From assembly GCA_964588285.1 (NCBI GenBank), contig CAZPNX010000012.1, positions 5,329 through 69,328 of the forward strand: 64,000 nucleotides of DNA, written 5' to 3'. Under the pieces are notes generated by a model that saw only the letters and a list, made by a program, of their open reading frames with translations, was not told the origin of the DNA and searched no databases. Each line of letters begins with the position of its first letter. Position 1 is the first letter of the stretch. The position numbers and the translations under genes are program-made. Source of the DNA: an uncultured bacterium (GTDB taxonomy: Bacteria > Edwardsbacteria > AC1 > EtOH8). Shown in pieces: positions 33,708 through 54,707 of the stretch.

Positions 33708-34415
33708 ATGAAACAAACTGCTGTGCTGTCAAGTTTCTGCCTTCTGACCTGCCTGCTCCAGCCTCAAATATTGTGGGCCCAGGGGACTCCAGCACGGACA
33801 GGCTCGGCACCGGCTCGAACCTCGGTGGCCATCTTGGAACTGGAGCCCAAGGGGGTGCCCGAGGTCGAGGTCTCGGCCCTGTCCGACCGGCTGCGTTCTG
33901 AGCTGCTGAACACCGGTTCCTTTGACGTCATGGAGCGGGGCAAGATGCAGGACATTCTGCGCGAGCAGGGCTTCCAGCAGTCGGGAGCCTGCAACACCGA
34001 CGCCTGCGCCGTGGAGGTGGGCCAGCTGATAGGGGTGGAGAAGATGATCGCCGGAAGCTTGGGCAAGGTGGGCCGCACCTATACCGTCAACCTGCGGCTG
34101 ATCAGCGTCAAGACCGGGCGGATAGAGCGCAGCGTCACCCGGGACTATGCCGGGGAGATAGACAAGCTGCTGACTATGGAGATGAAACAGGTGGCCCAGA
34201 TCCTGGCGGCCTCGGTGGGCGGCAAACAGGTGACGCCCCAGTCCAAACCTGCGGCCGTCTCCAAGCCCATCTACAAAAAATGGTGGTTCTACGCCGGAAT
34301 CGGGGCGGTGGCCGCCGGTGGTGCGGCCGCGGCCCTGGCGGGCGGGAGCTCGTCCAACGACGGCACCGAGACGCCGGTGGACAATACCATACCCCTGCCG
34401 CCGGCGCGGCCATAA
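33708..34415 (+). CDS. CsgG/LpoB-like domain exported protein with C-terminal hydrophobic tail
   Basis: VAILEL...VMERGKMQDILREQGFQQSGAC...CAVEVGQLIGV; tail KWWFYAGIGAVAAGG; AAGGAG RBS. Confidence 0.6.
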   Translation: MKQTAVLSSFCLLTCLLQPQILWAQGTPARTGSAPARTSVAILELEPKGVPEVEVSALSDRLRSELLNTGSFDVMERGKMQDILREQGFQQSGACNTDACAVEVGQLIGVEKMIAGSLGKVGRTYTVNLRLISVKTGRIERSVTRDYAGEIDKLLTMEMKQVAQILAASVGGKQVTPQSKPAAVSKPIYKKWWFYAGIGAVAAGGAAAALAGGSSSNDGTETPVDNTIPLPPARP

Positions 34416-34427
34416 GGAGGGACGAAG

Positions 34428-37400
34428 ATGAAATACGCATTATATATAGCATTGGCAGCCATGATGGCGGCCGTCCCGGCCCTGGCCGACTGGCCCCAGG
34501 GGGGCATTCCGGTGGGGGCGGCGCCCGGCAACGACATCGGGGCGGCAGTGGTTCCGGACGGGCAGGGCGGGGTCATTTATATCTGGCTGAGTTCTGGTGA
34601 AAATGCCATCAAAGCCAGGCGCATCGACCGCTATGGACACGATGTCTGGATGTCTGGCCAGGTGGCGATCAGCCCCATGGGCTCAACCGCGCCAGGTGGC
34701 TTCTCGGCCGTCAGCGACGGGCAAGGCGGGGCCATAATAGCTTGGCAGGAAAGAACTGTTTCTCCCTACGAGGTGAGGATACAGCGGGTCGATCAAGACG
34801 GCAACCTTGTCTGGCCGGCCAACGGTATCCCCATGTGGAACGGAACCACCCTCAGGGAGCAGTCGAATCCAGTGCTGGTCAAGGGGCCCAGCCGCGTCTT
34901 TGCTGTGTACCATCAGAACAACCCGGTTCCTCCGAACTCTATAGACCTCTTCGCCCAGTGTTTCGATCTTAACGGCAATAGGCAGTGGGGCGACTACGGG
35001 GCCGTGGTCTGCACCACCGCTGTCGGCGACAACAGGAATCCCGCGACCATCGCCCGCGGCGACAGTTCGATCATGGTGGCCTGGGAGGACTTCCGTAGCG
35101 GCAACGGCGACATCTATGCCAACGCCCTGGTCAATGCAACAGCCTGGGTTATCAATGGAACACCGGTCTGCGATCTGGCCGGCAACCAGCTTAAACCGGT
35201 AGCCACCCTTGACGGCACCGGAGGGATGTTCATAGCCTGGGAGGACTTCCGTTCCGGCGCCGGGTCTGATATCTACGCCCAGAGGTACACTTCAGGAGGC
35301 ATCATGGCTTGGGTGCCTACGGGCGGTGTACCGGTTTGTACTTTAAGCGGGGACCAAAAGGAGTTGGACATCTGCCGGACAGCCGGCAACAGGGCCCTTT
35401 TGGTATGGACCGACCAGCGTCTGGGCGCCGGCAACGAGGACATCTATGCCATGGTCCTCAACGACAACGGCAGCCAGCACTGGGCGGAAACCGGCGGCTT
35501 GATGATCACCAACGCCAGCGGCCTACAGCAGCTGCCCCGGATAGCTCACTCGGCCGACGGCACCAAATTCGTCATCGCCTGGGAGCATCCCCTCGCTTCA
35601 TTTAACGCAGGCGTTTATGCCCAGAGGATCAACCTGGATGAAAGCTTTGGCTGGGGCACATTCGTCCGACAACCGGATGCGACCCATGCCAGGAAACCGA
35701 TGCTGGTCCGGGGAAGCGATGAGCACGTTTTCTTCGCTTGGGAGGACGACCATAACGGCGACTGGGATATCTACGGCCAGCGGGCCCATTGGGAGGGCGG
35801 GGGGTACATAGGCAGTGTCGTGGCCCCGCAACTGGCCGAACCGGCCAATATGGGAGTTGTCGGCACCGATCAAATTACCTTCTATTGGCGTCGGTCTCCG
35901 TTCCCGCCGGGAGCCGAGGCATACAGGCTCTACGCGGAGGATGCCGGAAACCCGGCCATTAACTTCGGCGCCAACTCAAGCGATACCTTTGCGCAACTCA
36001 CCCTTCCGCCTGGGGCAACCTACAACTGGAAGGTGAGAGCCGTGAACGGTTCCATTCCCGATTCCTCCGACTGGTCCGAGGTGTGGCAGTTCACCATAGA
36101 CACCTCGGTGCCGGCCACGCCCACCCTGATATCGCCGCCCAACGCCAGCCATGTCGACTCGAACATCGTCATCTTCGAATGGTCGCTGGACACCAGCGCC
36201 GCCATGCACCATATCCAGATAGATAACGACATGGGCTTCTCTTCCCCCATAGTCAACGACTCCATGATCGGCATGCCGCCCTACGGCTACGATTTCACCT
36301 TCCAGCCGAACGGGAAGTATTACTGGCGGGTGCGGGCCGGCAGCTCCGCCCACGTCTGGTCGAACTGGTCCCAAATATGGTCGGTGACGGTGGACACGGT
36401 TCCGGCCGGGGTCGACAGCACCAAGCCGGCCAACAACAACAACAACGTTCCGGTGACTTCAATCGTCCGGGTGTTCTTCACCGAACCGGTGCGGACCGAC
36501 ACCTCGCTCCACTTCTCCTGCCAGCCCGATCCAGGCAACTGGCAGATTACCCAGACCGGCAGCATACTGGACTTCGATCCCCAGTCTAGTTTCGGCTATG
36601 GCACGCTCTACAGGATCAACCTAACGGCCAGGGACTCGGCCGGCAACCAGACGGTGGTGCCCGAATTCTCATTTACCACCGAAAATATCACCGACACCGT
36701 CCCGCCGCGGCTGACGGTGCTGGCCAACGGGGTGGACATGATCTTGGGTCAGCAGTTCGTGTTCGAATGTTATGCCAAGGACGAACACAAACTAAACCTG
36801 GTTCACTTGACCTACGGCCCGGCCGGCTCCGGCACCGCCACCGGCAACGTGGACATGGCGCCGGTGTCCGGCTCGGACAGCTTGTGGCGCTATGTTATAC
36901 CCGCCAATCACATCACCGCCCGGGGGCTGCAGTACCAGGTTTGGGCCCAGGATTCGATCCTGGCGGGAGGCCTTAGCAATGTCACTAATTTTCCGCCCGA
37001 CCCCACCGACTTCCACGTCCACGCCGTCAGCTTCCCGGGCGGGGCCTACAACACCACCTATGCGAGCGACCAGTGGCTGATGCTCTCGGTTCCCGGGGAC
37101 TACACCGGCGTTTCCTTGTTCGACATGCTGTCCGACGACCTGGGGGCTTACGACAATACCAAGTGGAGGCTGTTCGACTACCAGAACACCACCCTGGTGG
37201 AGCAGGGCACGGGCGGCTCGGGCGTCATCCGCACCGGCCAGGCCATGTGGCTCAGGCAGAGGGTGAGCGCGAACATCGTTCTGGATTTCCAGGGTGTCCA
37301 CAAATCCTACGGCGACCGGCTGCGCTCCCAGCCGGCCCAGGTAACGCTGGTTCCCGGCTGGAGCGACGTGGGCAACCCCCTGGCCTTCGATGTGCGCTGG

Positions 37401-38339
37401 GACACCACCATGGCGCTGAGCGACACCGCCAGCGTGGCCGGGCCCTACCAATTCAACGGCACCTCCTGGCTGCTGCCCAACCAGCTGATGGGTGGGACCA
37501 TGTCCCCTTACGCCGGCTACTCGTTCAGGAACACCCGGGCCACCAACGCCATGCTGAGGGTGCCATACCACCAGGCTTGGAAGGGCAAGGACGACGGTAA
37601 GGCCCTGTGGCCCGAGGGCTGGCAGGTGCGGGTAACGGCCAGGTCTGGAGAAGGCCATGACGACGCCTGGTTCGGCATAGGCAATGGCGCGGCACAGGGG
37701 ATCGACCGCTGGGACTTCCCGGAACCGCCAAACGGCCTGGTGCCGGCGGCCGGATATTTCTATGTTGCTGACGAGAAATGCGCCGTGGACCTGAGGCCGG
37801 AACTGGGCCAGGGCCAGGTCTGGTACTACGAGTTGGCGGCCGGCGGACCGGTTTCTATGGAATTCGGGCTGTCCACGGGGATTCCGCCCGAGACCGCTAT
37901 CTGGCTGCTGGACCCGGTCAGGCAGTCATCGTTTCCGATATCCGAGGGTTTTGCCTACCAGTACTCGCCCGAACCCGGCGAGACAGCCCGTCGCTTCAGG
38001 CTGGTGGCCGGGGCCGAGGAATACGTTCACGCTGTCCTGGCCGGAGCCTTCGGTCTGCCTCCCGCCACATTAATGGAGCACGGCCGGCCCAACCCGTTTT
38101 CTCAGACAACGACCATCAGCTATCAGTTGGCAACGGGCGGGCCGGTGCGGATGGCGGTCTACAACGTGGCCGGCCAGATGGTGAGGACGCTGGTAGACAG
38201 GACGCAGCAGCCGGGACGCTACGGAGTGCGCTGGGACGGCCGGGACGACCGGGGGCAGAGGGCGGCCAACGGCGTCTACTTAGTTAGGATGACGGCCGGG
38301 GGAGTAACTGCCAACCAGCGGTTGACGTTGATCAGGTAG
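34428..38339 (+). CDS. Large secreted multidomain protein (beta-propeller, FN3/Ig-like, SbsA-Ig) with C-terminal FlgD-Ig/CTD-like domain
   Basis: Signal peptide; AWEDFRSGxxDIY blades; STKPANNNNNVPVTSIVRVFFTEP (Big_5-like); PNPFS...YNVAGQMVRTL...WDGRDD...GVYLVRM. Confidence 0.75.
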   Translation: MKYALYIALAAMMAAVPALADWPQGGIPVGAAPGNDIGAAVVPDGQGGVIYIWLSSGENAIKARRIDRYGHDVWMSGQVAISPMGSTAPGGFSAVSDGQGGAIIAWQERTVSPYEVRIQRVDQDGNLVWPANGIPMWNGTTLREQSNPVLVKGPSRVFAVYHQNNPVPPNSIDLFAQCFDLNGNRQWGDYGAVVCTTAVGDNRNPATIARGDSSIMVAWEDFRSGNGDIYANALVNATAWVINGTPVCDLAGNQLKPVATLDGTGGMFIAWEDFRSGAGSDIYAQRYTSGGIMAWVPTGGVPVCTLSGDQKELDICRTAGNRALLVWTDQRLGAGNEDIYAMVLNDNGSQHWAETGGLMITNASGLQQLPRIAHSADGTKFVIAWEHPLASFNAGVYAQRINLDESFGWGTFVRQPDATHARKPMLVRGSDEHVFFAWEDDHNGDWDIYGQRAHWEGGGYIGSVVAPQLAEPANMGVVGTDQITFYWRRSPFPPGAEAYRLYAEDAGNPAINFGANSSDTFAQLTLPPGATYNWKVRAVNGSIPDSSDWSEVWQFTIDTSVPATPTLISPPNASHVDSNIVIFEWSLDTSAAMHHIQIDNDMGFSSPIVNDSMIGMPPYGYDFTFQPNGKYYWRVRAGSSAHVWSNWSQIWSVTVDTVPAGVDSTKPANNNNNVPVTSIVRVFFTEPVRTDTSLHFSCQPDPGNWQITQTGSILDFDPQSSFGYGTLYRINLTARDSAGNQTVVPEFSFTTENITDTVPPRLTVLANGVDMILGQQFVFECYAKDEHKLNLVHLTYGPAGSGTATGNVDMAPVSGSDSLWRYVIPANHITARGLQYQVWAQDSILAGGLSNVTNFPPDPTDFHVHAVSFPGGAYNTTYASDQWLMLSVPGDYTGVSLFDMLSDDLGAYDNTKWRLFDYQNTTLVEQGTGGSGVIRTGQAMWLRQRVSANIVLDFQGVHKSYGDRLRSQPAQVTLVPGWSDVGNPLAFDVRWDTTMALSDTASVAGPYQFNGTSWLLPNQLMGGTMSPYAGYSFRNTRATNAMLRVPYHQAWKGKDDGKALWPEGWQVRVTARSGEGHDDAWFGIGNGAAQGIDRWDFPEPPNGLVPAAGYFYVADEKCAVDLRPELGQGQVWYYELAAGGPVSMEFGLSTGIPPETAIWLLDPVRQSSFPISEGFAYQYSPEPGETARRFRLVAGAEEYVHAVLAGAFGLPPATLMEHGRPNPFSQTTTISYQLATGGPVRMAVYNVAGQMVRTLVDRTQQPGRYGVRWDGRDDRGQRAANGVYLVRMTAGGVTANQRLTLIR

Positions 38340-40527: not shown

Positions 40528-41169
40528 ATGCTGCAAGCCGTCATCTTCGACGCCGACGGCGTCATCATAGACTCGGAGAAGATATGGGACCTGGCCCAGG
40601 AAGAATTCCTGCGTCGTCGGGGAATATCCTACGAAAGGGAGCGGGTAAAGCTTGTCTGCACCGCCAATTCACCGGTGGGGGCCATAAGGGCATTGCAGGA
40701 GATGTACGGTTTTTCCGGCGACCCGGAGCAGATGTCCGAGGAGAGGATCGCCATCGTTCGAGAGCACTACCAGAAGCAGGGAGTCCCGCTGGTTCCCGGT
40801 TTCACCGACTTCTTCGCCAAGGTCAGAAAAAAATACCTGGCGGCCGTGGCCACGGCCATGGAGCAGGGGTTGTTGGGTCTGGTGGCGGAGAGGCTGGAAC
40901 TACGAGGTCTTTTCGGTGAGCACATATACTCTATTTCCGAGATCGGCTACGTGCCCAAGCCCAATCCCGACATCTTCCTCTACGCCGCCAACAGGCTTGG
41001 GGTCAAACCAGGGAACTGCCTGGTGATAGAGGACTCGCCTAACGGCATCGAGTCGGCCCGGCGGGCCGGGATGCGCTGCGTGGCTCTGACCACTACCTTC
41101 GGGCGGGAGAGGCTGGGGGGAGCGGACCAGGTGGTTGACGGCTTCGAGGAGATAGACTTAGTCTTCTGA
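40528..41169 (+). CDS. HAD-family phosphatase (beta-PGM-like)
   Basis: IFDADGVIIDSE, KPNPDIFL, IEDSPNG. Confidence 0.9.
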   Translation: MLQAVIFDADGVIIDSEKIWDLAQEEFLRRRGISYERERVKLVCTANSPVGAIRALQEMYGFSGDPEQMSEERIAIVREHYQKQGVPLVPGFTDFFAKVRKKYLAAVATAMEQGLLGLVAERLELRGLFGEHIYSISEIGYVPKPNPDIFLYAANRLGVKPGNCLVIEDSPNGIESARRAGMRCVALTTTFGRERLGGADQVVDGFEEIDLVF

Positions 41170-41193
41170 TACCATTATAGCTTTATCTATAAA

Positions 41194-41229
41194 AAACAGG
41201 AGAGCCCGCAGATGCGGGCTCTCCTGTTT
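41194..41229. terminator. Bidirectional terminator
   Basis: AAACAGGAGAGCCCGCA-GA-TGCGGGCTCTCCTGTTT between convergent genes. Confidence 0.8.
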
Positions 41230-41243
41230 AATCCAATCCTTTT

Positions 41244-41654
41244 CTATTCTACATAGACTTCCACCCGGTCGCCGGACTCTTCGTCCTCGACGTCCACCAT
41301 CTGGTAGCGGCCGTTGACGGCGAACTGGTCGAACAGGCTCTCGATGTCCTCGAAGCTTTCGGCGTCCAGCCTGATGCCCTTGGCCTCCATCTTTTCCTTG
41401 GCCTGCTCCGGCATCATCATGTGGAATTTGCCGCCCAGCTTTCCGGCGATCTTTAAAAGGGAGAGGGGCACGGTCACCCTGACCTTGGGCCTCTCCGAAC
41501 CCTTTTCGAAAACCCGGACCTTTAGCCAGTGGGCTCGGCCGTTCTGCAGGCCGGAACCGGGCGACTCGATGGCCGCCAAGAGCTTGGCTCCCTCCTCGGC
41601 GGTTATCTTCTTCTCCTCGACCATGCGTAGGATGCGGATGCGTTCTTCAGACAT
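41244..41654 (-). CDS. SHOCT-like domain protein (YvlB/LiaX N-terminus-like)
   Basis: MSEERIRILRMVEEKKITAEEGAKLL; WLKVRV...VRVTVPLSL; start set at ATG 41654. Confidence 0.75.
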   Translation of the reverse strand: MSEERIRILRMVEEKKITAEEGAKLLAAIESPGSGLQNGRAHWLKVRVFEKGSERPKVRVTVPLSLLKIAGKLGGKFHMMMPEQAKEKMEAKGIRLDAESFEDIESLFDQFAVNGRYQMVDVEDEESGDRVEVYVE

Positions 41655-41682
41655 GTGACTATTTCCTTTCAAAAACATTATC

Positions 41683-41785
41683 CAGGGCCTGCGTCATCCT
41701 GAGATGCCTTCCGTGCCCAACGGGTTGAAGGATGACAGCATCATCCCTCAACTTGCCTGGCGTGGAGCAAACTCGGGGTGACATT
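41683..41785. repeat. Tandem REP-like hairpins
   Basis: GTCATCCT...AGGATGAC followed by a second imperfect hairpin ending CTCGGGGTGACA; the same 12-mer is intergenic at 38405-38416. Confidence 0.4.
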
Positions 41786-41811
41786 TATGAGTAAGATTGT
41801 CGGCATAACGT

Positions 41812-43080
41812 TCACCGAAGTTCTGTTTGGACCGCCGGGTCGAACCCGATGAAGCGGCGGAACGGTTCGGAGAACAGCAGGGGCAGGGCGATGAACCCGG
41901 GGATGATCATGCAGGCGGAGATGATGAGCCTGACCGGCAGGAACTCGGCCAGCACCCCGCCCAGGGCCATGCCCAGCGGCATCAGGCCGCCGGTGACCGT
42001 GCCCATCAGGGAGAAGACCTTGCCCCGCATGTCGGCCGGGGTGGCCATTTGCATCACCGAGCTGATGAGGGTGTTGACCACCGAGTTGCAGGCGGCCCCC
42101 AGCAGGCCCACGGCCAGCATGGGGTAGAACCCCACCAAGGGGAAAAGGGCCCACAGCAGACAGGTCAGGCCCAGGCCGGCGTTGAAGACGGCGAAACGCC
42201 GCTTTGGCGGTACCGGCAACGCCGACAGGGCCAGAAGGCCGGCCAGGAAACCGGCGGTGACCACGGCCATGGCCAGGCCGTACCTGGCCGGGCCCAGCCC
42301 GGCCGTCTTTTGGAACATGGGCAGTATCAGGATGAAGCCCATGTTGCCGAAGAGGTTCATGCCGGCGGCCAGCAGTATCAGGTCGCGCAAGCCGCGGATG
42401 CGCCAGACGAAATCCAGGCCGCCCTTGAAGTCCTTCCAGAAATGGAACTCGGGGGCGGCGTGGAACACCTTGGGGACGCGGATGAACAGCGAGGCCGCCC
42501 CGGCGTAGATGTAGGAAAGCCCGTTGAAAAGGAACAGCAGGGGGGGCCCCAGGAACTGGTAAATGAGGCCGCCGGCCGAGTTGCCCAGGATGCCGGTCGA
42601 GGTGCCGATCAGGCCGAACACCGAGTTGGCCCGGACTATTTGGTCGCGCTTGACTATATCCGGCAGCACCGAACCCACCGCCGGATTGAAGAAGGCGCCG
42701 CCCAGTCCCATGACCGTGCCGGCGGCGAAGACCATCCACACCTGGCAGCGCCCGGCCAGGGCGGCGGCGCCAACCAGGACCACGGCCAGGCCGCGGGCCA
42801 TGTCCGACCAGGCCAGAACCAGGCGGCGGTCGGCGCGGTCCACCCAGACGCCAGCGGCCGGGGAGACCAGGATGCGAGGCAGTGCGGTGGCGGCCATCAG
42901 GGCTCCCATGACGGCGGTGGAGCCGGTGGCGGCCAGGACCCAGAAGCCTAGGGCGATCTCATACACTACGTCCCCCAGCGAGGAGACCAGCTGTCCCTGC
43001 CACAGCAGCAGGAAGTTCCGATTCCAGAGCCCGGCGCACGCAGCGGCGGACGGCGGAGCAACGGCGGCGGCCTCGGCCAT
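41812..43080 (-). CDS. MFS transporter (DHA3/macrolide-efflux-like)
   Basis: RNFLLLWQGQLVSSLGD, GVWVDRADRR, RGKVFSL; 12-TM pattern. Confidence 0.88.
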   Translation of the reverse strand: MAEAAAVAPPSAAACAGLWNRNFLLLWQGQLVSSLGDVVYEIALGFWVLAATGSTAVMGALMAATALPRILVSPAAGVWVDRADRRLVLAWSDMARGLAVVLVGAAALAGRCQVWMVFAAGTVMGLGGAFFNPAVGSVLPDIVKRDQIVRANSVFGLIGTSTGILGNSAGGLIYQFLGPPLLFLFNGLSYIYAGAASLFIRVPKVFHAAPEFHFWKDFKGGLDFVWRIRGLRDLILLAAGMNLFGNMGFILILPMFQKTAGLGPARYGLAMAVVTAGFLAGLLALSALPVPPKRRFAVFNAGLGLTCLLWALFPLVGFYPMLAVGLLGAACNSVVNTLISSVMQMATPADMRGKVFSLMGTVTGGLMPLGMALGGVLAEFLPVRLIISACMIIPGFIALPLLFSEPFRRFIGFDPAVQTELR

Positions 43081-43087
43081 GTGTGCC

Positions 43088-43447
43088 TCAGGCGCCTCTC
43101 AGCTTTTTAGCCGCCTCGTCGGCCGACATCCGGCCCTCCTCGACTGCCTTAAGGATCTCGGCCCGACCGCTATCCGCCGTTTCCCCATGGTCCTTACTGA
43201 GGTCTTCTCCATGGCAGCAGCCTTCCCGGACGATCTTGAATTTATGCGAGGGGCGTCCGTCCCTCCAGGCCACCAGGTCGAGGATCTTCATCAGACCCCA
43301 GGCGATGAGCAGTATGGGCCAGTCCCTGGAGAAGGAGAAGTCGAAGCCAAGCAGGCCGTGGTTGGAGAGCAGCAGGAATATTCCCAGCAGAATCCAGAAA
43401 AGGCCCCACATGATCTTGCGGGGGCGGCTGAAGGAGAACCAGAACAT
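43088..43447 (-). CDS. LiaI/LiaF-like (DUF5668) membrane protein with C-terminal SHOCT-like domain
   Basis: WGLFWILLGIFLLLSNHG...WPILLIAWGL; C-terminal RAEILKAVEEGRMSADEAAKKL. Confidence 0.75.
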   Translation of the reverse strand: MFWFSFSRPRKIMWGLFWILLGIFLLLSNHGLLGFDFSFSRDWPILLIAWGLMKILDLVAWRDGRPSHKFKIVREGCCHGEDLSKDHGETADSGRAEILKAVEEGRMSADEAAKKLRGA

Positions 43448-43538
43448 TCGCGCTTCCTTTCATCTTGCCCGCCGGGGCAGGAGGGACGATGTCCCTTTTC
43501 GTCCGGGGCGGGATGTTTTCGGTTGTTGGGCGGCGCCC

Positions 43539-43715
43539 TCAGATGCTGTCCAGGAGTTCCGATACGCCTATCAGGACCAGGATGACCGGCCAGTCCTGGC
43601 GGAATGAGAACCGGGCGTCGATGACGCCGTGGTTCGACAGCAGGATCAGAGTCCCGGCGGCCATGAAGGCCAGCCCCCAGACTGCCTTGCTGACGATGCG
43701 TTTTATGTGGCTCAT
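43539..43715 (-). CDS. Small DUF5668-like membrane protein (58 aa, not in the ORF track)
   Basis: Hand translation MSHIKRIVSKAVWGLAFMAAGTLILLSNHGVIDARFSFRQDWPVILVLIGVSELLDSI; AAGGAGG RBS; paralogous to the N-terminus of 43088-43447. Confidence 0.8.
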   Translation of the reverse strand: MSHIKRIVSKAVWGLAFMAAGTLILLSNHGVIDARFSFRQDWPVILVLIGVSELLDSI

Positions 43716-43733
43716 GTTACCTCCTTGTTGATG

Positions 43734-43925
43734 TCAGATCCCCAGAAGGGGGCGGCCCGACCCTGTCGATGCGGACCCGCCGGCCGCATCCCGGCCATTA
43801 CCATGCTCCCGGCCGGGCGCGCCATCCTGGCCGTCGTCGGCCGTCCTTGAAGATGTCCCGCCCCACGATGACTCGTCGTGGGGGGTGAGGTAGAGGAATC
43901 CATCGGCATCCGGCATGATGGCCAT
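43734..43925 (-). CDS. Small acidic Gly-rich hypothetical protein (63 aa)
   Basis: GGAG RBS overlapping the upstream stop; fills the operon gap; no recognisable domain. Confidence 0.45.
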   Translation of the reverse strand: MAIMPDADGFLYLTPHDESSWGGTSSRTADDGQDGAPGREHGNGRDAAGGSASTGSGRPLLGI

Positions 43926-43934
43926 GGCGCTCTC

Positions 43935-45197
43935 CTATCCGATGCTGATGTCGCCGCTGGTGGTTCTGACCGAGACGGCCACCCGGCCGGCGCCCAGCCT
44001 TCCCGTAAGCCTCCGGCTGGTCTGGTTCCGCTCTGCCAGCTCCAGGCTGCAGTCGATGTCCCCGCTGGCGGTGGAGGCCTCGAGCGACATGTCCGAACCG
44101 TCCGGGACCTCGAGCTCCACGTCCCCGCTGACGCTGGCCAGACGGATGTCGCCGCCCGGGGACGACCGGAGTTCTACGGAGATGTCGCCGGAGGTGGTGG
44201 AAGCCTTCAGGCCCTCCAGCATTTCCGCCTCTAGCTCCAGGTCCCCGGAGACGGTGCTCACCTCCGCCCGCCCGCGCTCCAGCTTCAGGGATAGGTCGCC
44301 GCTCACGGACTGGGCGACCAGCTCGCCGGAGAAATCGGCCGCCTCGATATCGCCGCTGGCTGTCTGTATCCTGACAGAGGCCTGGATGCACTTGGCCAAC
44401 TCGATGTCCCCCGAAGCGGTTGAGATCTCAATGGTCCCGGAGCAGCCGTCTAGCGATACCTCGCCCGAGGTGGAATTGATCTTGGCCCCGCCGGCGGCGC
44501 CGGTCACCTCGATCTCGCCCGAGGCCGTCCCCAGCTCCAGGGCCAGCCCCTTCGGCACCTCCAGTTCGAAGTCCACCTGGGCCCGGCGTTTCTTGGTCCA
44601 GGGCGGGCCCTCCAGCTTGACGCGCAGCGTGCCACCGTCGTTCTCGGCCACCACCTTTAGGGATTTCAGCCTTTCCTGGGCCTCGCCCTCGTCGTCGCCG
44701 TAAACGTGGACCTGGGCCTTGATAACGATCTGGTCGGTATCATTTCCGGTCACAGAGATCTCGCTGCGGGGCTGGCTCAGGGACAGCGCCCTGATCCCCT
44801 CGGCCGGGACGGTGACCACCTGCTCCTCCTCGGCGTGGTGGGCGCCGAAGCAGCACTCCACAATCTTGGGGAGGTCGGGCACCCGGGGCACCTTGGGGAC
44901 CCGGGGGATCCGGAAATGGATGTGCCTCTCCCGGTGCCGTTCCATCCTCTCCCGGGCCAGCTCCATCTTCTCCCGGGCGCGCTCCATGGCCTCGGCGGCC
45001 ACCAGGCCGGGGTTGACCTCGTCCATCACCCGGGCCACGATCCGGGCCGGGTCGGGGCCGTGTTCCCGGTATTCATCCTCATCACTGCTGGCCGGGGCAG
45101 GGGGCTCCTTGATGGCCGCCAGCAGCCCCTCGGCCTCCTGGGAGGTGATCTTGCCGGACTCCAGGAGCTTCAATATCCTCAAAGTTTCGTCAGACAT
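43935..45197 (-). CDS. DUF4097 beta-strand-repeat protein with N-terminal SHOCT-like domain (LiaX/YvlB-like)
   Basis: MSDETLRILKLLESGKITSQEAEGLL; repeated [ST][ATV]SG[DE][IV]x[LV] strands. Confidence 0.85.
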   Translation of the reverse strand: MSDETLRILKLLESGKITSQEAEGLLAAIKEPPAPASSDEDEYREHGPDPARIVARVMDEVNPGLVAAEAMERAREKMELARERMERHRERHIHFRIPRVPKVPRVPDLPKIVECCFGAHHAEEEQVVTVPAEGIRALSLSQPRSEISVTGNDTDQIVIKAQVHVYGDDEGEAQERLKSLKVVAENDGGTLRVKLEGPPWTKKRRAQVDFELEVPKGLALELGTASGEIEVTGAAGGAKINSTSGEVSLDGCSGTIEISTASGDIELAKCIQASVRIQTASGDIEAADFSGELVAQSVSGDLSLKLERGRAEVSTVSGDLELEAEMLEGLKASTTSGDISVELRSSPGGDIRLASVSGDVELEVPDGSDMSLEASTASGDIDCSLELAERNQTSRRLTGRLGAGRVAVSVRTTSGDISIG

Positions 45198-45236
45198 TTT
45201 CTGTTCCTTCTTCTGAATGTTTTCAGGCGTCCCCGC

Positions 45237-45329
45237 CTAGATGAACAGCATCAGGAACAAAGAGGAGATGACGCCCAGGGGGATCAGGCCCCCCAGGTCC
45301 ACCTGCCTCAGCCAGTTCGTGTGCTTCAT
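45237..45329 (-). CDS. 30-aa single-TM micro-protein (not in the ORF track)
   Basis: Hand translation MKHTNWLRQVDLGGLIPLGVISSLFLMLFI; GGAGAG RBS; sits between DUF2089 and DUF4097. Confidence 0.6.
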   Translation of the reverse strand: MKHTNWLRQVDLGGLIPLGVISSLFLMLFI

Positions 45330-45361
45330 TGTTCTCTCCAAATTATAAGGTTTTTAGAATG

Positions 45362-45727
45362 TTAGCTTCTGAGCTTGTTCAGCTCCTCGATGGCCTGGGC
45401 GGCGGTCAGCCGGCCCTCCTCCAGCTCCCTGAGTATCTCCTCGCGGCTGCGTCCGGCGGCGTCCATCCTTGAGAGGGCAGCGATGACCTCGTCCAGCCTG
45501 GCCCGGACGGTGGGGTAGGAGACCTGCAGCCTTTTCTCCATCTCCCTGATGCTGCCGCGTGAGATGACGAAGGTCCTGATGAAGGACAGCTGCTCCTCGG
45601 ACAGGCTGCCCAGCGGGGTGGGGGTGAACTCGCCGCGGACCACGGTGTCGCACGAGGTGCACTTGAGCTCGGAGACCATGGTGGGCGAACCGCAGGAGGG
45701 GCAGAGGTGCGGCATCTGCTTCGGCAT
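45362..45727 (-). CDS. DUF2089-family protein (Zn ribbon + HTH + SHOCT-like tail)
   Basis: CPSCG...CTSCDTVVRGEF; FIRTFVISRGSIREMEKRLQVSYPTVRARLDEVI; REEILRELEEGRLTAAQA. Confidence 0.9.
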   Translation of the reverse strand: MPKQMPHLCPSCGSPTMVSELKCTSCDTVVRGEFTPTPLGSLSEEQLSFIRTFVISRGSIREMEKRLQVSYPTVRARLDEVIAALSRMDAAGRSREEILRELEEGRLTAAQAIEELNKLRS

Positions 45728-45739
45728 GTCCGTCTACCT

Positions 45740-45880
45740 TCAGGCGGATTTGTTGGGGGAGGGAAGGCCGAGGATCATGCCGGCCAGCGACGCCCAAAGG
45801 AGGACGTTAAACTGGTCCCTTTGTGCGGATTCGGCAATGGTGCCGGCGATAGAGGGTGTGGCGAAGGGTTGGGTGTTCAT
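45740..45880 (-). CDS. 46-aa micro-peptide, paralog B (not in the ORF track)
   Basis: Hand translation MNTQPFATPSIAGTIAESAQRDQFNVLLWASLAGMILGLPSPNKSA; GAGG RBS; similar to paralog A. Confidence 0.65.
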   Translation of the reverse strand: MNTQPFATPSIAGTIAESAQRDQFNVLLWASLAGMILGLPSPNKSA

Positions 45881-45892
45881 GGCTTGACCTCT

Positions 45893-46030
45893 TCAGTTTG
45901 ATTTGTTCGAGGCGGGGTTCAGGATGCCGTTTATTATGGATGTCCAGAGGAAGACTTCGAAGGATGCGGAACTGGAGTCGGACACAGGTGCTACCGATGC
46001 TGTCAGAGCTTTTCGAATCATCTGATCCAT
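45893..46030 (-). CDS. 45-aa micro-peptide, paralog A (not in the ORF track)
   Basis: Hand translation MDQMIRKALTASVAPVSDSSSASFEVFLWTSIINGILNPASNKSN; GGAG RBS; first ORF after a consensus promoter. Confidence 0.65.
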   Translation of the reverse strand: MDQMIRKALTASVAPVSDSSSASFEVFLWTSIINGILNPASNKSN

Positions 46031-46087: not shown

Positions 46088-46116
46088 ATTATACCATAAA
46101 TAATAAACATTGTCAA
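46088..46116 (-). promoter_or_regulatory. Perfect-consensus sigma70 promoter of the micro-peptide/DUF2089 operon
   Basis: Minus-strand TTGACA-ATGTTTATTATTTATGG-TATAAT (17-nt spacer) with an AT-rich UP-element-like tract upstream. Confidence 0.85.
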
Positions 46117-47285: not shown

Positions 47286-48428
47286 ATGAAAAACATTTTA
47301 ATATTTATCTTGCTCTGCCTGGCTATGTTCACCGGCTGTAGCTGCCGTAAGAAGCCCTGTGACACCCCGCCGCCGGACAATTATGACCCCAGGAACGTCA
47401 GCCGCAATACCAGTAATTCATACAGCGGTACGTTGGCGGTTGGCTCTGACGGTACCGTGCATGTTGTCTGGTGCGACGACGCCTCGGGACAGTTTAAAAC
47501 ATATTACGCCAGCAAGCCTTCAGGTGGCACGTGGTCCTCGGCAGTAGATATTGCCGGCAACACCACCAGGGCCTGCAGCGCACCGCAGATATCGGCCGAT
47601 CCCGCAGGCAGTCTGCATGTGGTGTGGGACGAATTGGGAACGGTTCCCGGCAGCCATGCCATATATGTTAACAAGCCGCAAGGCGGAAGCTGGTCAACGC
47701 CCTTGGACATAAGCAGCCCAACAACATCAAACGGTTCATTACCGCAAATAGGGATAGATGACGAAGGAAAAGTTTATGTGGTTTATGATGGAGGGGGGGG
47801 GGCTTTATATTATACAATTAGGAATATAAATGGTTTATGGGATACCCCATTAGAGTTTGGAGGCTTAAGTACTTTCGGAAATCCTTCGTTAGCCGTCAGC
47901 TCTGATGGTCAGATACATGTTGTTTATGAGAATAACTCGCATTGGGTCATGTACATGCACCGTTCAGCCGCTGGTGTTTGGGATTCGGCAGTGGATATTT
48001 CCAAAATGCCAGGGCAATATTGTTCCATTTCCAATATAACGGTTGACAACGCGGGCAATGTCTATGCCGCTTGGACTGACCGGACTGCCAGGGAAGTATA
48101 TTTTTCCATGAAGGCGGCCGGGGATACGGCCTGGAGCCAACCCTTGAACGTTTCCAACAGCGAGGCAGGGTCTTGGATTCCGAAGATGGCAGTAGCTTCT
48201 GATGGAACCTTGCATTACATCTGGGCCGAGGACATAACGCCCGGGGTGGCGGATATTTATTACAAACAAAGGTCGCCTACGGGTGTGTGGACAGCGGCCG
48301 TGAACATCTCGAACACGCAGGGAGACACACGCATCAGTGGACTGACCATTGGCGCCGACGGAAAATTGCACATTCTCTGGACCGAAGTGCCTGATAATGA
48401 TGTGTATTGTGACAGCTATCCCAAATAA
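47286..48428 (+). CDS. Lipoprotein with BNR-like beta-propeller repeats
   Basis: Lipobox FTGC; repeats of P-x-[IL]-A-V-x-x-D-G-x-[LV]-H-[VI]-V-W. Confidence 0.7.
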   Translation: MKNILIFILLCLAMFTGCSCRKKPCDTPPPDNYDPRNVSRNTSNSYSGTLAVGSDGTVHVVWCDDASGQFKTYYASKPSGGTWSSAVDIAGNTTRACSAPQISADPAGSLHVVWDELGTVPGSHAIYVNKPQGGSWSTPLDISSPTTSNGSLPQIGIDDEGKVYVVYDGGGGALYYTIRNINGLWDTPLEFGGLSTFGNPSLAVSSDGQIHVVYENNSHWVMYMHRSAAGVWDSAVDISKMPGQYCSISNITVDNAGNVYAAWTDRTAREVYFSMKAAGDTAWSQPLNVSNSEAGSWIPKMAVASDGTLHYIWAEDITPGVADIYYKQRSPTGVWTAAVNISNTQGDTRISGLTIGADGKLHILWTEVPDNDVYCDSYPK

Positions 48429-48925: not shown

Positions 48926-49783
48926 CTAGGCCGCTAAACATATGGGCAGCGGTTCTTTTGTTTCCGGGGCCGGCGGCCTGTAGCCCAGGGAGCTGTGAGG
49001 CCGAAACGTATTGTAGTCTTGCCGCCACCGCGCCGTCAGGACCCGCGCTTCCAATACCGTGTCCAACAACTCCCGGTTGAGGAGCTCGTCCCGGAACTTG
49101 CCGTTGAATGATTCGATGTACCCGTTCTCCCAGGGACTGCCCGGCTCAATAAACAGCGTCCTGACCCCGATCCGCCCGAACCATTCCCTGACCTTGCGGG
49201 CGGTAAACTCGGCCCCGTTGTCCGATCGTATGCACTCCGGCAAGCCACGCCTCATAAACAAATCCTGCAGCCGCTCCAGCACGTCTTCGGCCCTGAGGCT
49301 CCGGGCCACGTCTATGGCCAGGCATTCCCTGGTGTACTCGTCGATTATGGTCAGGAACCTAAGCGGCAGCCCGTCGCTGGTCCGCCTGTGGACGAAGTCG
49401 TAGCTCCACACGTGATTGGGCCTTTGTGGCCTCAGCCGGACGCAGGTGCCGTCGTTCAGCCAAAGCCGTCGCCGAGGTTTCTGCTTCTGCAGCACCTTCA
49501 GGCCCTCGGCCCGCCAGATCCGCTCCACCCGCTTGTGGTTGACTCGCCAGCCGCCTTGTTTCAAAAGAGCCGTGATCCGGCGGTAACCGTACCGCCCGTA
49601 GTCCTTGGCCAGACGGACTATGTCCGCTGTTAACCTTGGTTCGTCGTCCGCCTCCCGGGGCCGGTAGCCTTGGGTCGACCGCGCCTGCCCCAGCGCACGG
49701 CAGGCCCGACGTTCGGAAACGGCCAGCTTGGTACATGCCTCGGTGATCGCCCGGCGCCGTTTGGCCGGGCTCAGAAGTTTCCC
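48926..49783 (-). CDS. IS3 transposase OrfB (DDE), expressed by -1 frameshift
   Basis: YGYRRI, WSYDFV, IRSDNG, NGYIESFNG; slippery G-GGA-AAC at 49777-49783 followed by a GCCCGGC/GCCGGGC hairpin. Confidence 0.9.
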   Translation of the reverse strand, partial: GKLLSPAKRRRAITEACTKLAVSERRACRALGQARSTQGYRPREADDEPRLTADIVRLAKDYGRYGYRRITALLKQGGWRVNHKRVERIWRAEGLKVLQKQKPRRRLWLNDGTCVRLRPQRPNHVWSYDFVHRRTSDGLPLRFLTIIDEYTRECLAIDVARSLRAEDVLERLQDLFMRRGLPECIRSDNGAEFTARKVREWFGRIGVRTLFIEPGSPWENGYIESFNGKFRDELLNRELLDTVLEARVLTARWRQDYNTFRPHSSLGYRPPAPETKEPLPICLAA

Positions 49784-50049
49784 GAGGCCGCCTCCTTGAG
49801 TATCTGGTTGTCCAAAGACAGGTTGGCCACCAGCTTCTTCAGCCGGGCGTTCTCCTGCTCCATTTCCTTCATCCGCCTGGCCTGGTCCACCCGCAGGCCT
49901 CCGTATTCCTTGCGCCACCGGTAGTAGGTCAGCTTGCTCACCCCGATCTTACGGCTGGCCTCCTCGACGCTGGTCCCCTGGTTTATCAGCAACTCCGCCT
50001 CCCGCAGCTTGCCGATGATCTCCTCCGGCTTGTACTTGACCTGTGGCAT
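49771..50049 (-). CDS. IS3 transposase OrfA
   Basis: KYKPEEIIGKLREAE...TYYRWRKEYGGL...EQENARLKKLVANLSLDNQILKE (HTH + leucine zipper). Confidence 0.9.
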   Translation of the reverse strand: MPQVKYKPEEIIGKLREAELLINQGTSVEEASRKIGVSKLTYYRWRKEYGGLRVDQARRMKEMEQENARLKKLVANLSLDNQILKEAASGNF

Positions 50050-53144: not shown

Positions 53145-54707
53145 ATGAGGAGGTCAGTTTTATCAGCTTTGTTTGTTCTCCTTATTGCCGGCCCGGCCTG
53201 GGGACAGCGCCGGGTGACGGTCTCGGTAATGGACCTCAACGTCACCGAGGGGGTGTCGGCCAAAGAGGCGGTGATGCTGACCGACAAGCTTTTGAACAGC
53301 TTGGTGGAGTTCCGGGTCTACGAGGTGGTGGAGCGCTCCAAGCGGGACGAGATCCTCAAAGAACAGGGTTTCCAGATGACCGGGGCCTGCAGCGAGGCCT
53401 CCTGTCTGGTGGAGGTGGGGCAGCTTTTGGGCGCCCAGAAGATGATCGGGGGAACGTTGGGCCGGCTGGGTAATCTCTATGCGGTGGAATTACGGATGAT
53501 AGACATCCAGACCGGCAAGATAGATCTGGTGTTCTCCAAAAACTACAGCGGAGACATCTCCAATCTGCTGGTGGCCATGAAACAGGCGGCCGAGACCTTC
53601 TCCCGCTGGCGTCCGGGGCCGGAGGGGGCGGCGCCCAAGGGCGGGCTGGTGATCTATTCCAAGCCGGACCAGGCCAAGGTGATCGTGGACGATAAGGAAT
53701 ACGGCTATACGCCCACCTATGTCTATCCCTTGGATATCGGGCTGCATCAGGTGGTGATATTGAAGGAGGGATACAATCTCTATAGCCAGGGAATGACCAT
53801 CAAGCCGGGCGGGGTGGATACTCTGGAGGCGGTGCTGTCAAAGACCGTGGGCAGTCTGAGGGTTGTTTCCCATCCGGCCGGGGCCAGGGTCTATTTGAAC
53901 CGGGAATACAGGGGGAAGGCCTCGGGCAAGGGCTTGCTGATTGAGAACCTGAAACTACAGCCCTATCTTCTTAAACTGGACCGAGCCGGCTATGGTTCGC
54001 ATCAGGAGGAGATCAACCTGGATGTCGGCCAGGAGAAGAAGGTGGAGATAACCTTGAAGCCGAGACACTGGTGGCTGAGCCTGGACGGGGGATTGATCGC
54101 CCAGGGGGTGACCGGTAAAGTGGAGTATGGCAACATAGCTGCAATAACCGGCGAGGGCGGCGGCGGACCGGAATATCAATTCGGGCTTTTACTGGGGCGA
54201 CGTATAACTAAAAATCTCTCGGCCTTTTTAGGATGGCAGTATCACACTGCCTATGCCGGCAATGATGATTTAATAATAATACCGGCTAATTCGGTTTATG
54301 TCGAGCATACCCAGGAAATCTCGATGAGCTTCAGCCTGCCGGCCATTACCGCCGGGATGCAGGTTTCCACCCTGTGGGGCCGGTTTGAGCCCTATGCCGA
54401 GATAAGGTATGGTTTCGGTATGCCGAAACCGGAGGCGAAGGAAAAAGTCGAGTATTTCAATTGGAATTCCAGCGGTCCCGTCCCGTTGAGCACCGATAGG
54501 GAATATGATTGCCAAGGCTACTCCAACTTTCAGGCCGGCCTAGGCGGCAAGGTGTGGTTCAATTCCACCGTGGCCTACGTCTTTTCCTTCCAGTACAATT
54601 ACGAAAAGATTAAGGAAGTGCCCAATTCTTTCAACCCACAGATTGATGATAAGAGCCTGGCCTCCTGGAATTTTTCCAACTACTGGGGCCTGGAGTTCGC
54701 CTGGTGA
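53145..54707 (+). CDS. PEGA-domain protein with N-terminal CsgG-like domain and C-terminal beta-barrel
   Basis: VVERSKRDEILKEQGFQMTGAC; two PEGA repeats (SKPDQAKVIVD, SHPAGARVYLN); ends with an aromatic residue (GLEFAW). Confidence 0.7.
   Translation: MRRSVLSALFVLLIAGPAWGQRRVTVSVMDLNVTEGVSAKEAVMLTDKLLNSLVEFRVYEVVERSKRDEILKEQGFQMTGACSEASCLVEVGQLLGAQKMIGGTLGRLGNLYAVELRMIDIQTGKIDLVFSKNYSGDISNLLVAMKQAAETFSRWRPGPEGAAPKGGLVIYSKPDQAKVIVDDKEYGYTPTYVYPLDIGLHQVVILKEGYNLYSQGMTIKPGGVDTLEAVLSKTVGSLRVVSHPAGARVYLNREYRGKASGKGLLIENLKLQPYLLKLDRAGYGSHQEEINLDVGQEKKVEITLKPRHWWLSLDGGLIAQGVTGKVEYGNIAAITGEGGGGPEYQFGLLLGRRITKNLSAFLGWQYHTAYAGNDDLIIIPANSVYVEHTQEISMSFSLPAITAGMQVSTLWGRFEPYAEIRYGFGMPKPEAKEKVEYFNWNSSGPVPLSTDREYDCQGYSNFQAGLGGKVWFNSTVAYVFSFQYNYEKIKEVPNSFNPQIDDKSLASWNFSNYWGLEFAW

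Follow-up and report, generated by a model that had tools for sequence, protein, structure and literature searches.

We analysed a stretch of 64,000 nucleotides (the window, below) from contig CAZPNX010000012.1 of an uncultured bacterium of the Edwardsbacteria lineage (assembly GCA_964588285.1), and found on its minus strand a six-gene operon organised around a candidate regulator of the DUF2089 family. In transcription order, the genes encode the DUF2089 protein, a Toastrack protein, two LiaI-LiaF-TM (LiaTM) proteins of 58 and 119 residues, an MFS_3 exporter, and a protein with an uncharacterised domain here called X. The operon extends from a promoter at position 46116 through an intrinsic terminator near 41190 and is predicted to be a single transcription unit. 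Four of its products carry at one terminus a short SHOCT-like module (PF22746), and these modules separate into two classes, termed D and TX. Positions are those of the window, the features of the operon all lie on the minus strand, and loci in other genomes are designated by L and a number. The closest relatives are genomes of Candidatus Edwardsbacteria and UBP2, recovered from freshwater or groundwater metagenomes.

The DUF2089 protein (121 residues, 45362-45727) comprises a zinc ribbon (PF22747, 43.4 bits), a helix-turn-helix (HTH) domain (PF09862, 75.6 bits) and a C-terminal D-type module (~45371-45448, PF22746). The best Foldseek matches of its AlphaFold2 (AF2) model, which has a predicted local distance difference test (pLDDT) score of 77, are LuxR/GerE and sigma region 4 domains, on which the HTH superposes at ~2 Å over 48 columns with E-values that are not significant (0.23 or higher). 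On the strength of the model, the HTH resembles the LuxR/GerE or sigma-region-4 type. No HisKA/HATPase or receiver domain was detected among the window open reading frames (ORFs) scanned, and neither was any histidine kinase, response regulator, sigma factor, anti-sigma factor, PspA or PspC. An earlier reading of this DNA, here called the original prediction, had proposed that DUF2089 may be the regulator of a system devoid of two-component proteins. Both parts of that proposal are supported, with DUF2089 as the sole putative DNA-binding component of the conserved unit described below.

The second gene encodes a soluble protein of 420 residues (43935-45197), with an N-terminal TX-type module (~45102-45197, PF22746), a charged linker and a Toastrack (DUF4097) beta-helix (PF13349, 112.5 bits); no transmembrane (TM) segment is present in its N-terminal 134 residues, the portion examined. 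Its scores against the NCBIfam models for LiaG (110.5 bits, cut-off 285) and LiaX (38.3 bits, cut-off 350) lie well below both thresholds, and the Toastrack part alone aligns. The 58-residue LiaTM protein (43539-43715; PF18917, 42.5 bits) has two TM helices and no module, and its gene adjoins that of the 119-residue LiaTM protein in L089, L091 and L009 too. This larger protein (43088-43447; PF18917, 33.8 bits), which we regard as the membrane anchor, ends in a D-type module (~43091-43165, PF22746). Basic residues lie N- and C-terminal of its two hydrophobic segments, which places the module in the cytoplasm. Two further ORFs are doubtful. A possible low-complexity ORF of 63 codons (43734-43925) resembles only at its N-terminus (MAIMPD) and C-terminus a 53-residue gene product encoded at the same place in L089. 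A hydrophobic 30-residue ORF (45237-45329, minus strand) with a GGAG ribosome-binding site is not conserved in relatives, where the gap it occupies is just 43-57 nt long, and is probably spurious.

The fifth gene product is a 422-residue MFS_3/DHA3-like H+ antiporter (41812-43080; PF07690, 107 bits; PF05977, 95.7 bits against a cut-off of 27), whose 208 bits against TIGR00900 fall under that model's cut-off of 319.6. The last is a soluble 136-residue protein (41244-41654) with no hydrophobic segment, in which an N-terminal TX-type module (~41556-41645, PF22746) precedes the X domain (~41247-41537). None of its 99 homologues (133-136 residues) contains any other Pfam family, and the X domain itself is matched by no Pfam or NCBIfam family. 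Its AF2 model (pLDDT 71) consists of two helices and a four-stranded alpha/beta domain, and a Foldseek search with it yielded nothing below an E-value of 0.9. Two candidate relationships of the X domain were rejected: the matches to TIM barrels in a sequence-profile search of the PDB were to designed proteins and are spurious, and comparison with Toastrack by hhalign gave a probability of 0.13%, marking the two as unrelated.

A sigma-70-type element, TTGACA-17 nt-TATAAT with a TG extension (46088-46116), matches the consensus at 12 of 12 positions and is likely the operon promoter and a candidate autoregulation site. It lies directly after the terminator of a ROK gene, within a very AT-rich island of 150 nt, and its -35, TG and -10 parts are conserved in L089 and L091; in L009, it is readable on the -10 side only. 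A perfect sigma-70 consensus is of unusual strength for a regulatory operon. At the other end, an intrinsic terminator (41189-41228) has a GC-rich stem of 15 bp and, after it, a T run; a scan called its inner stem (41209-41196), and the whole hairpin was read directly from the sequence.

Between promoter and DUF2089 gene lie two tandem paralogous small ORFs, each with its own ribosome-binding site: sORF1 (45 residues, 45893-46030), recognised by direct reading of the sequence, and sORF2 (46 residues, 45740-45880), called as a gene in relatives. The motif F-x-V-x-LW-x-S-[IL]-x-G-[IM]-IL is common to both, and sORF2 has a single hydrophobic stretch with a 15-residue Kyte-Doolittle maximum of 1.94. 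An orthologue of sORF1 is present in L089, and sORF2 is conserved in L089, L009 and L091. The family is confined to this clade, with only 2 clusters among 5.8 billion proteins, and thus is not part of the general system. The original prediction had overlooked both small ORFs, together with the second LiaTM gene (43539-43715), the promoter and the terminator. The proteins that it did list are all present, and their family labels are correct by Pfam (DUF2089 zinc ribbon plus HTH, DUF4097/Toastrack, and LiaI-LiaF-like_TM1, formerly DUF5668). Its start for the last gene, at 41654, agrees with the homologues of 133-136 residues, which begin at that Met.

The shared module and conservation of the unit

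The four modules were originally recognised by the pattern IL-x2-[LV]-E-x-[GK]-x-[ILM]-[TS]-x2-[EQ]-[AG]. In a six-frame translation of the window, this pattern has exactly four matches (45392-45436, 45132-45176, 43112-43156 and 41589-41633), all on the minus strand and all in the one operon. None of 200 residue shuffles matched it and the analytic chance expectation is 3.6e-5, a figure that is not independent evidence, as the pattern was derived from these same four copies. Independently of the pattern, the Pfam model PF22746 (SHOCT-like_DUF2089-C) matches all four proteins at the termini named by the original prediction, which is borne out on this point. The X protein (40.7 bits) and the Toastrack protein (30.2 bits) score above the gathering threshold of 27, and the 119-residue anchor (22.5 bits) and DUF2089 (15.0 bits) below it; the two sub-threshold copies are kept in orthologues and across phyla. 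A custom hidden Markov model (HMM) of the module, among whose seeds were the four window copies, matches them at 1e-7 to 1e-12 and nothing else in any window ORF. The classical SHOCT model PF09851 gave no match to the window copies at E <= 0.1, only the SHOCT-like model PF22746 being reported. In AF2 models, the module, about 26 residues in length, is predicted with high local confidence as two short amphipathic helices that meet at a conserved Gly. The net charge of the modules is acidic, and they have no basic or aromatic belt.

To gauge the conservation of this arrangement, DUF2089 was scanned for in one genome per GTDB species, which gave at least 598 confirmed matches, and the best 80 loci were annotated with custom HMMs. 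Among these are Bacillota (with many gut clostridia), Anaerolineae, Bacteroidota, Spirochaetota, Elusimicrobia and candidate phyla, and the carriers that can be cultivated include Clostridium carboxidivorans (L080), Neobacillus drentensis (L086) and Extibacter muris (L011). The regulator carries the module in 75 of the 80 loci, and in 74 a partner gene encoding a SHOCT-like module, an X domain or a Toastrack domain follows immediately downstream, on the same strand and within 1 kb. The partner is a module-X protein in 52 of the 80 loci and a Toastrack protein in 20, both types occurring in 4, so that one or the other is found in 68. In most loci of the remaining, 'other' class, the product is a divergent beta-helix or Toastrack-like protein whose module is N-terminal. 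Some Clostridia (L031, L034, L035) show a further variation, in which long G-x-[VI]-x-G-D repeats come after the N-terminal module of the DUF2089 partner; the repeat pattern would fit a bactofilin-like beta-helix better than Toastrack.

The same picture emerges when the search starts from the 136-residue protein: three unrelated lineages have the row DUF2089, module-Toastrack, optional genes and module-X. The full set of DUF2089, Toastrack, TM protein and X recurs in the window's own clade, in L001 (Anaerolineae) and in L004, and DUF2089, Toastrack and X recur in L045, L052 (Latescibacterota) and L073. The closest relatives share the window's row including the promoter and the small ORFs. At the other extreme are compact three-gene operons (L098, L099) encoding DUF2089, a LiaTM protein with a D module and an X protein with a TX module, in which stop and start codons overlap; L096 has the same parts. 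The original prediction had held that it would fail if the genes did not co-occur, and their co-occurrence is strong in the surveyed loci, in the clade and in the three-gene operons. The same data dispose of the view that the shared motif is a chance or compositional likeness among unrelated neighbours. Such a view could point to the brevity of the module and to the two copies under the Pfam gathering score. It is refuted by the locus survey and the motif statistics: the low chance expectation, the recurrence of the module at the same termini across phyla, and a gene order kept in 74 of 80 loci.

The exporter has a looser association with the unit. It is present in the window and L089, and is missing from the close relatives L091, L092 and L009. 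Across the survey, an MFS gene is found in 6 of the 80 loci, always downstream of DUF2089 and on the same strand, and the MFS model matches nowhere else in the DNA fetched; it lies inside the operon in L004, L023, L045, L073, L080 and L085, and about 6 kb downstream in L047. The exporter is a recurrent but optional accessory. The coupling to an MFS exporter claimed by the original prediction does recur in operons, and was overstated in being treated as a feature of the circuit itself.

Two module classes and natural fusions

The modules fall into two separable classes that follow the kind of protein that bears them. D-type modules are found on the regulator and on LiaTM anchors, and TX-type modules on soluble Toastrack and X proteins; the window conforms, with D-type modules on the regulator and the 119-residue anchor and TX-type modules on the Toastrack and X proteins. 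The consensus of the regulator modules is R-x-E-I-L-x-x-L-E-x-G-E-I-T-x-x-E-A-x-x-x-L, and that of the TX class E-E-[RK]-[LM]-x-I-L-K-M-[VL]-E-E-G-K-I-T-A-E-E-A-x-x-L-L-x-A-L. Module columns 6, 11, 23 and 25 and the LLxAL extension are the positions that discriminate between them. With a leave-one-out position-specific score, 0 of 79 regulator modules and 1 of 68 Toastrack/X modules were misclassified. The split was repeated on proteins from other searches, some of which had been HMM seeds, with 99 of 99 X proteins and 111 of 113 DUF2089 proteins assigned correctly. Modules on membrane anchors are D-type in 5 of 5 cases in the loci and in all 21 cluster representatives combining LiaTM with a module, retrieved by an exhaustive search of 1.84 billion cluster representatives; this holds even on the shared core columns alone. 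The class tracks the partner domain and not the terminus: C-terminal modules of Toastrack proteins are clearly TX in 5 of 8 cases, and the N-terminal modules of two TM-X proteins fall on the D side, one of them marginally (+3.0). None of the 281 proteins retrieved has both a D and a TX module. The modules of the repeat proteins of L031, L034 and L035 score between the two classes.

This pattern bears directly on the published interpretation of the modules as independent inner-leaflet membrane anchors (Ravi et al. 2024), under which the proteins would meet through their Toastrack surfaces. That interpretation was drawn from domain architectures (PMC11237479). It accords with the presence of modules at either terminus of many unrelated globular domains and with the amphipathic, high-pLDDT helices of the AF2 models. 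However, the 119-residue protein and 21 further LiaTM proteins carry a module despite having two TM helices of their own, the net acidic modules lack the basic or aromatic belt noted above, and two clean classes tied to the type of partner would be unexpected of a generic lipid anchor. Moreover, a SHOCT-like X gene lies downstream in 52 of the 80 loci, most of them without a membrane protein by the custom HMMs. A pure membrane-anchor role is therefore unlikely, given that an integral membrane protein is also tagged and that the modules are net acidic.

A second line of evidence comes from proteins in which the parts that are separate in the window have been joined. P0250 (183 residues) has a LiaTM region followed directly by an X domain, and carries neither module. 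The former matches residues 5-60 of the anchor with 38% identity (E 2e-14), the latter residues 39-136 of the X protein with 57% identity (E 2e-42). P0259 and P0240 have the same architecture, giving three representatives (loci L093-L095). Where the two parts are encoded separately, the D and TX modules are located at the ends that the fused form joins. LiaF is itself a fusion of TM and Toastrack domains (PMC11237479). By Rosetta-stone logic, the LiaTM-X fusions and LiaF together indicate that the anchor and the X or Toastrack proteins act as one physical unit. The LiaTM-X protein can be described as a counterpart of LiaF with X in place of Toastrack. Proteins with the order module-TM-X are also encoded in L001 (7176-7889) and L004 (7459-7986).

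The original prediction envisaged contacts between modules by which the regulator is tethered to the membrane or released from it. In terms of the two classes, these would be contacts of like with like only: D with D, such that the anchor tail directly sequesters the regulator, or the regulator dimerises, and TX with TX, which would join Toastrack to X, with release constituting the switch. The membership of the regulator and anchor in one class, and of the window's Toastrack and X proteins in the other, agrees with this scheme, and LuxR-type regulators usually act as dimers. Nonetheless, the scheme leaves the modules without a role in the commonest form of the system, the two-gene pair of DUF2089 and TX-X found without an anchor (52 of 80 loci), and the LiaTM-X fusions, which replace a D and a TX module, are left without an explanation. 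In addition, in the sole published test, one classical SHOCT domain did not self-associate (PMC3581485), which speaks mildly against pairing of like with like and is silent on pairing of unlike modules. We consider homotypic contacts of this kind doubtful.

A candidate partner-switching circuit

The two classes and the fusions lead us to propose, with somewhat less than even confidence, that TX modules dock on the D modules of the anchor or the regulator, in a kinase-free partner switch similar to that of PspA. The SHOCT-like modules would then be docking tags of two kinds, of which the TX tag binds the D tag. On the anchor, a Toastrack or X protein would rebuild a 'split LiaF' (TM with either Toastrack or X) non-covalently at the membrane; on the regulator, it would hold the latter in one activity state. 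A change sensed at the membrane would move the soluble partner between anchor and regulator, and transcription would be altered as a result. The most likely target would be the operon's own very strong promoter, with DUF2089 as a repressor: its perfect and conserved sequence suggests that DUF2089 represses its own operon, as would befit a promoter in need of repression. The MFS exporter would be an optional output gene in some lineages. The gene set and its conservation, the two classes, the fused LiaTM-X forms and the cytoplasmic position of the modules are observed, whereas we infer that D and TX modules bind each other, which way the switch runs, its signal and its DNA target. The idea of contacts between SHOCT-like modules, already part of the original prediction, is supported indirectly by the two complementary classes and the LiaTM-X fusions. 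The label 'envelope stress' is borrowed by analogy from the Lia and Psp systems.

Several observations weigh against this proposal. The Foldseek E-values of the HTH do not reach significance. The AT-rich promoter region yields weak inverted repeats only, none of them convincingly conserved as an operator, and the sequence was encountered in three freshwater-metagenome DNA runs only and in no RNA run. The Toastrack modules of L047 and L083 are ambiguous or D-like. A swap of charges at the turn (K/R-G-E in D, E/D-G-K in TX) is common across loci and missing in the window's clade; charge complementarity and covariation of D modules with their partners were dropped as evidence, there being no convincing compensatory pattern. 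Two of the fused genes lie on contigs too short to show their neighbours, and P0240, the sole fused gene with readable context, stands alone and is not beside a DUF2089 gene, so that the fusion links the anchor with X and not with the regulator. To these may be added the classical SHOCT domain that failed to self-associate.

A further alternative is that all modules bind a shared third party, which might be nucleic acid (in the manner of a helix-hairpin-helix), a hub protein from another locus or some small ligand. Nucleic-acid binding was left possible by the authors of the SHOCT family after their failed oligomerisation test (PMC3581485), and in this lineage sORF1 and sORF2 could supply such a partner. 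Yet the small ORFs are limited to one clade whereas the module system extends across many phyla, it is not evident why a membrane anchor or a beta-helix scaffold should need to bind DNA, and neither the two-class pattern nor the fusions would be explained. We regard a common third partner as very improbable. Heterotypic docking of TX on D modules, to which we return, may also be generalised: a two-class docking code could build PspA-style circuits without kinases from separate genes in many phyla, and would be the first defined function for the SHOCT superfamily. We advance this broader claim more tentatively than the docking itself.

Related systems, genomic setting and implications

The general idea of a Lia-like circuit composed of DUF2089, Toastrack and LiaI-LiaF-TM proteins is not new, having been outlined computationally in 2024 (PMC11237479). 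Ravi et al. 2024 split DUF2089 into zinc-ribbon, HTH and SHOCT-like parts and described neighbourhoods with Toastrack, LiaI-LiaF-TM, B-box and PspC, usually along with a pair of extracytoplasmic function (ECF) sigma and anti-sigma factors; reading the SHOCT-like modules as inner-leaflet anchors, they proposed a Lia-like relay from membrane to transcription (PMC11237479). The window has the same three-part DUF2089, adjacent module-bearing Toastrack and LiaI-LiaF-TM partners. Their core system of four genes has an ECF sigma factor together with a zf-HC2 anti-sigma receptor. Neither of these is found in the operon or the window ORFs scanned, and Toastrack, two LiaTM proteins, an MFS exporter and X are brought together in one operon. 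The window instead matches the sigma-free dyad variant in Table S4 of that study, where 'DUF2089 -> SHOCT-like+X' is listed for Bacillus megaterium (PMC11237479). It is a sigma-free, expanded variant of the published prediction, to which the present analysis adds the two module classes and the LiaTM-X fusions, neither noted there, and the optional MFS insert. Of the overall interpretation offered by the original prediction, the conserved unit and DUF2089 as its only putative DNA-binding component are supported, and the interpretation is not new, most of it having been anticipated in PMC11237479. The literature that we searched and checked contained no experimental study of DUF2089.

The LiaFSR-LiaIH(G)/LiaX systems of Firmicutes share with the window the LiaI/LiaF-type TM domain and the Toastrack beta-helix as building blocks, and the HTH domains of LiaR and VraR belong to the same LuxR/GerE class that the DUF2089 HTH resembles. 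On the other hand, the kinase LiaS, the receiver domain of LiaR and LiaH/PspA were not found among the window ORFs scanned, and the TM and Toastrack domains that LiaF fuses are encoded here by separate genes (43088-43447 and 43935-45197), with only 17.6 bits to LiaF_C. In the PspA-PspF-PspBC system of Proteobacteria, a soluble protein is exchanged between a regulator and a pair of small membrane proteins without any phosphorylation. The logic proposed here is alike and there is no sequence relationship: PspA, the AAA+ enhancer-binding protein and the sigma-54 promoter are not part of the window system, in which contact would be made through two-helix tags. The term 'partner switching' is an analogy only with respect to the RsbV/RsbW type, as neither a STAS anti-anti-sigma factor nor a serine-kinase anti-sigma factor is found in the operon or the window ORFs scanned.

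The classical SHOCT domain (PF09851; Eberhardt et al. 2013, PMC3581485) is likewise a short two-helix module at the termini of many unrelated domains, with the pattern L-x2-L-x3-G-x-[IL]-[TS]-x2-E in common, while the window copies match PF22746 instead. A superficially similar gene arrangement is seen in the leaderless-bacteriocin locus of enterocin DD14 (PMC7332713), where two ORFs of ~44 residues also lie directly upstream of DUF2089, followed by membrane and transport genes. However, its DUF2089 has 89 residues, too short for a C-terminal module after the zinc ribbon and HTH; its peptides are cationic (pI ~10), whereas the window sORFs are uncharged overall and have no evident similarity to them; and its bPH and ABC transporter genes have no equivalent in the window locus.

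The operon is flanked by housekeeping genes. A HAD hydrolase gene (40528-41169, plus strand) separates the operon terminator from the Cpn10 gene. L091 and L092 lack it there, and it is, as with the MFS gene, a lineage-specific insertion bordering the operon. On the promoter side, an IS3-type transposase (48926-50049, minus strand), encoded by overlapping orfA (49771-50049) and orfB (48926-49918) and assigned to IS3 by reading the translation, and a BNR-repeat gene (47286-48428) separate the ROK gene from a tRNA synthetase gene. The latter two genes are adjacent in L089, and the transposase/BNR stretch thus looks like an insertion. Elsewhere, the window encodes a secreted gingipain-like Peptidase_C25 protein of 1602 residues with a propeptide domain (1567-6375, plus strand), a secreted protein of 1303 residues (34428-38339, plus strand) whose L091 counterpart has a FlgD-Ig domain, and CsgG/LpoB-like and PEGA lipoproteins (33708-34415 and 53145-54707).

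The reach of these observations follows from the wide distribution of DUF2089 operons, of which the survey confirmed at least 598 matches. In practical terms, they provide naming rules for three gene types now annotated as 'hypothetical', namely, SHOCT-like+X, LiaTM+SHOCT-like and LiaTM+X. Should the tags prove to be docking modules, what the SHOCT-like family does would become open to direct pairwise test, and Toastrack and LiaF-type proteins would be scaffolds recruited through a tag. The DUF2089 operons would then represent a second case, unrelated in sequence, of the logic embodied by PspA, PspF and PspBC.

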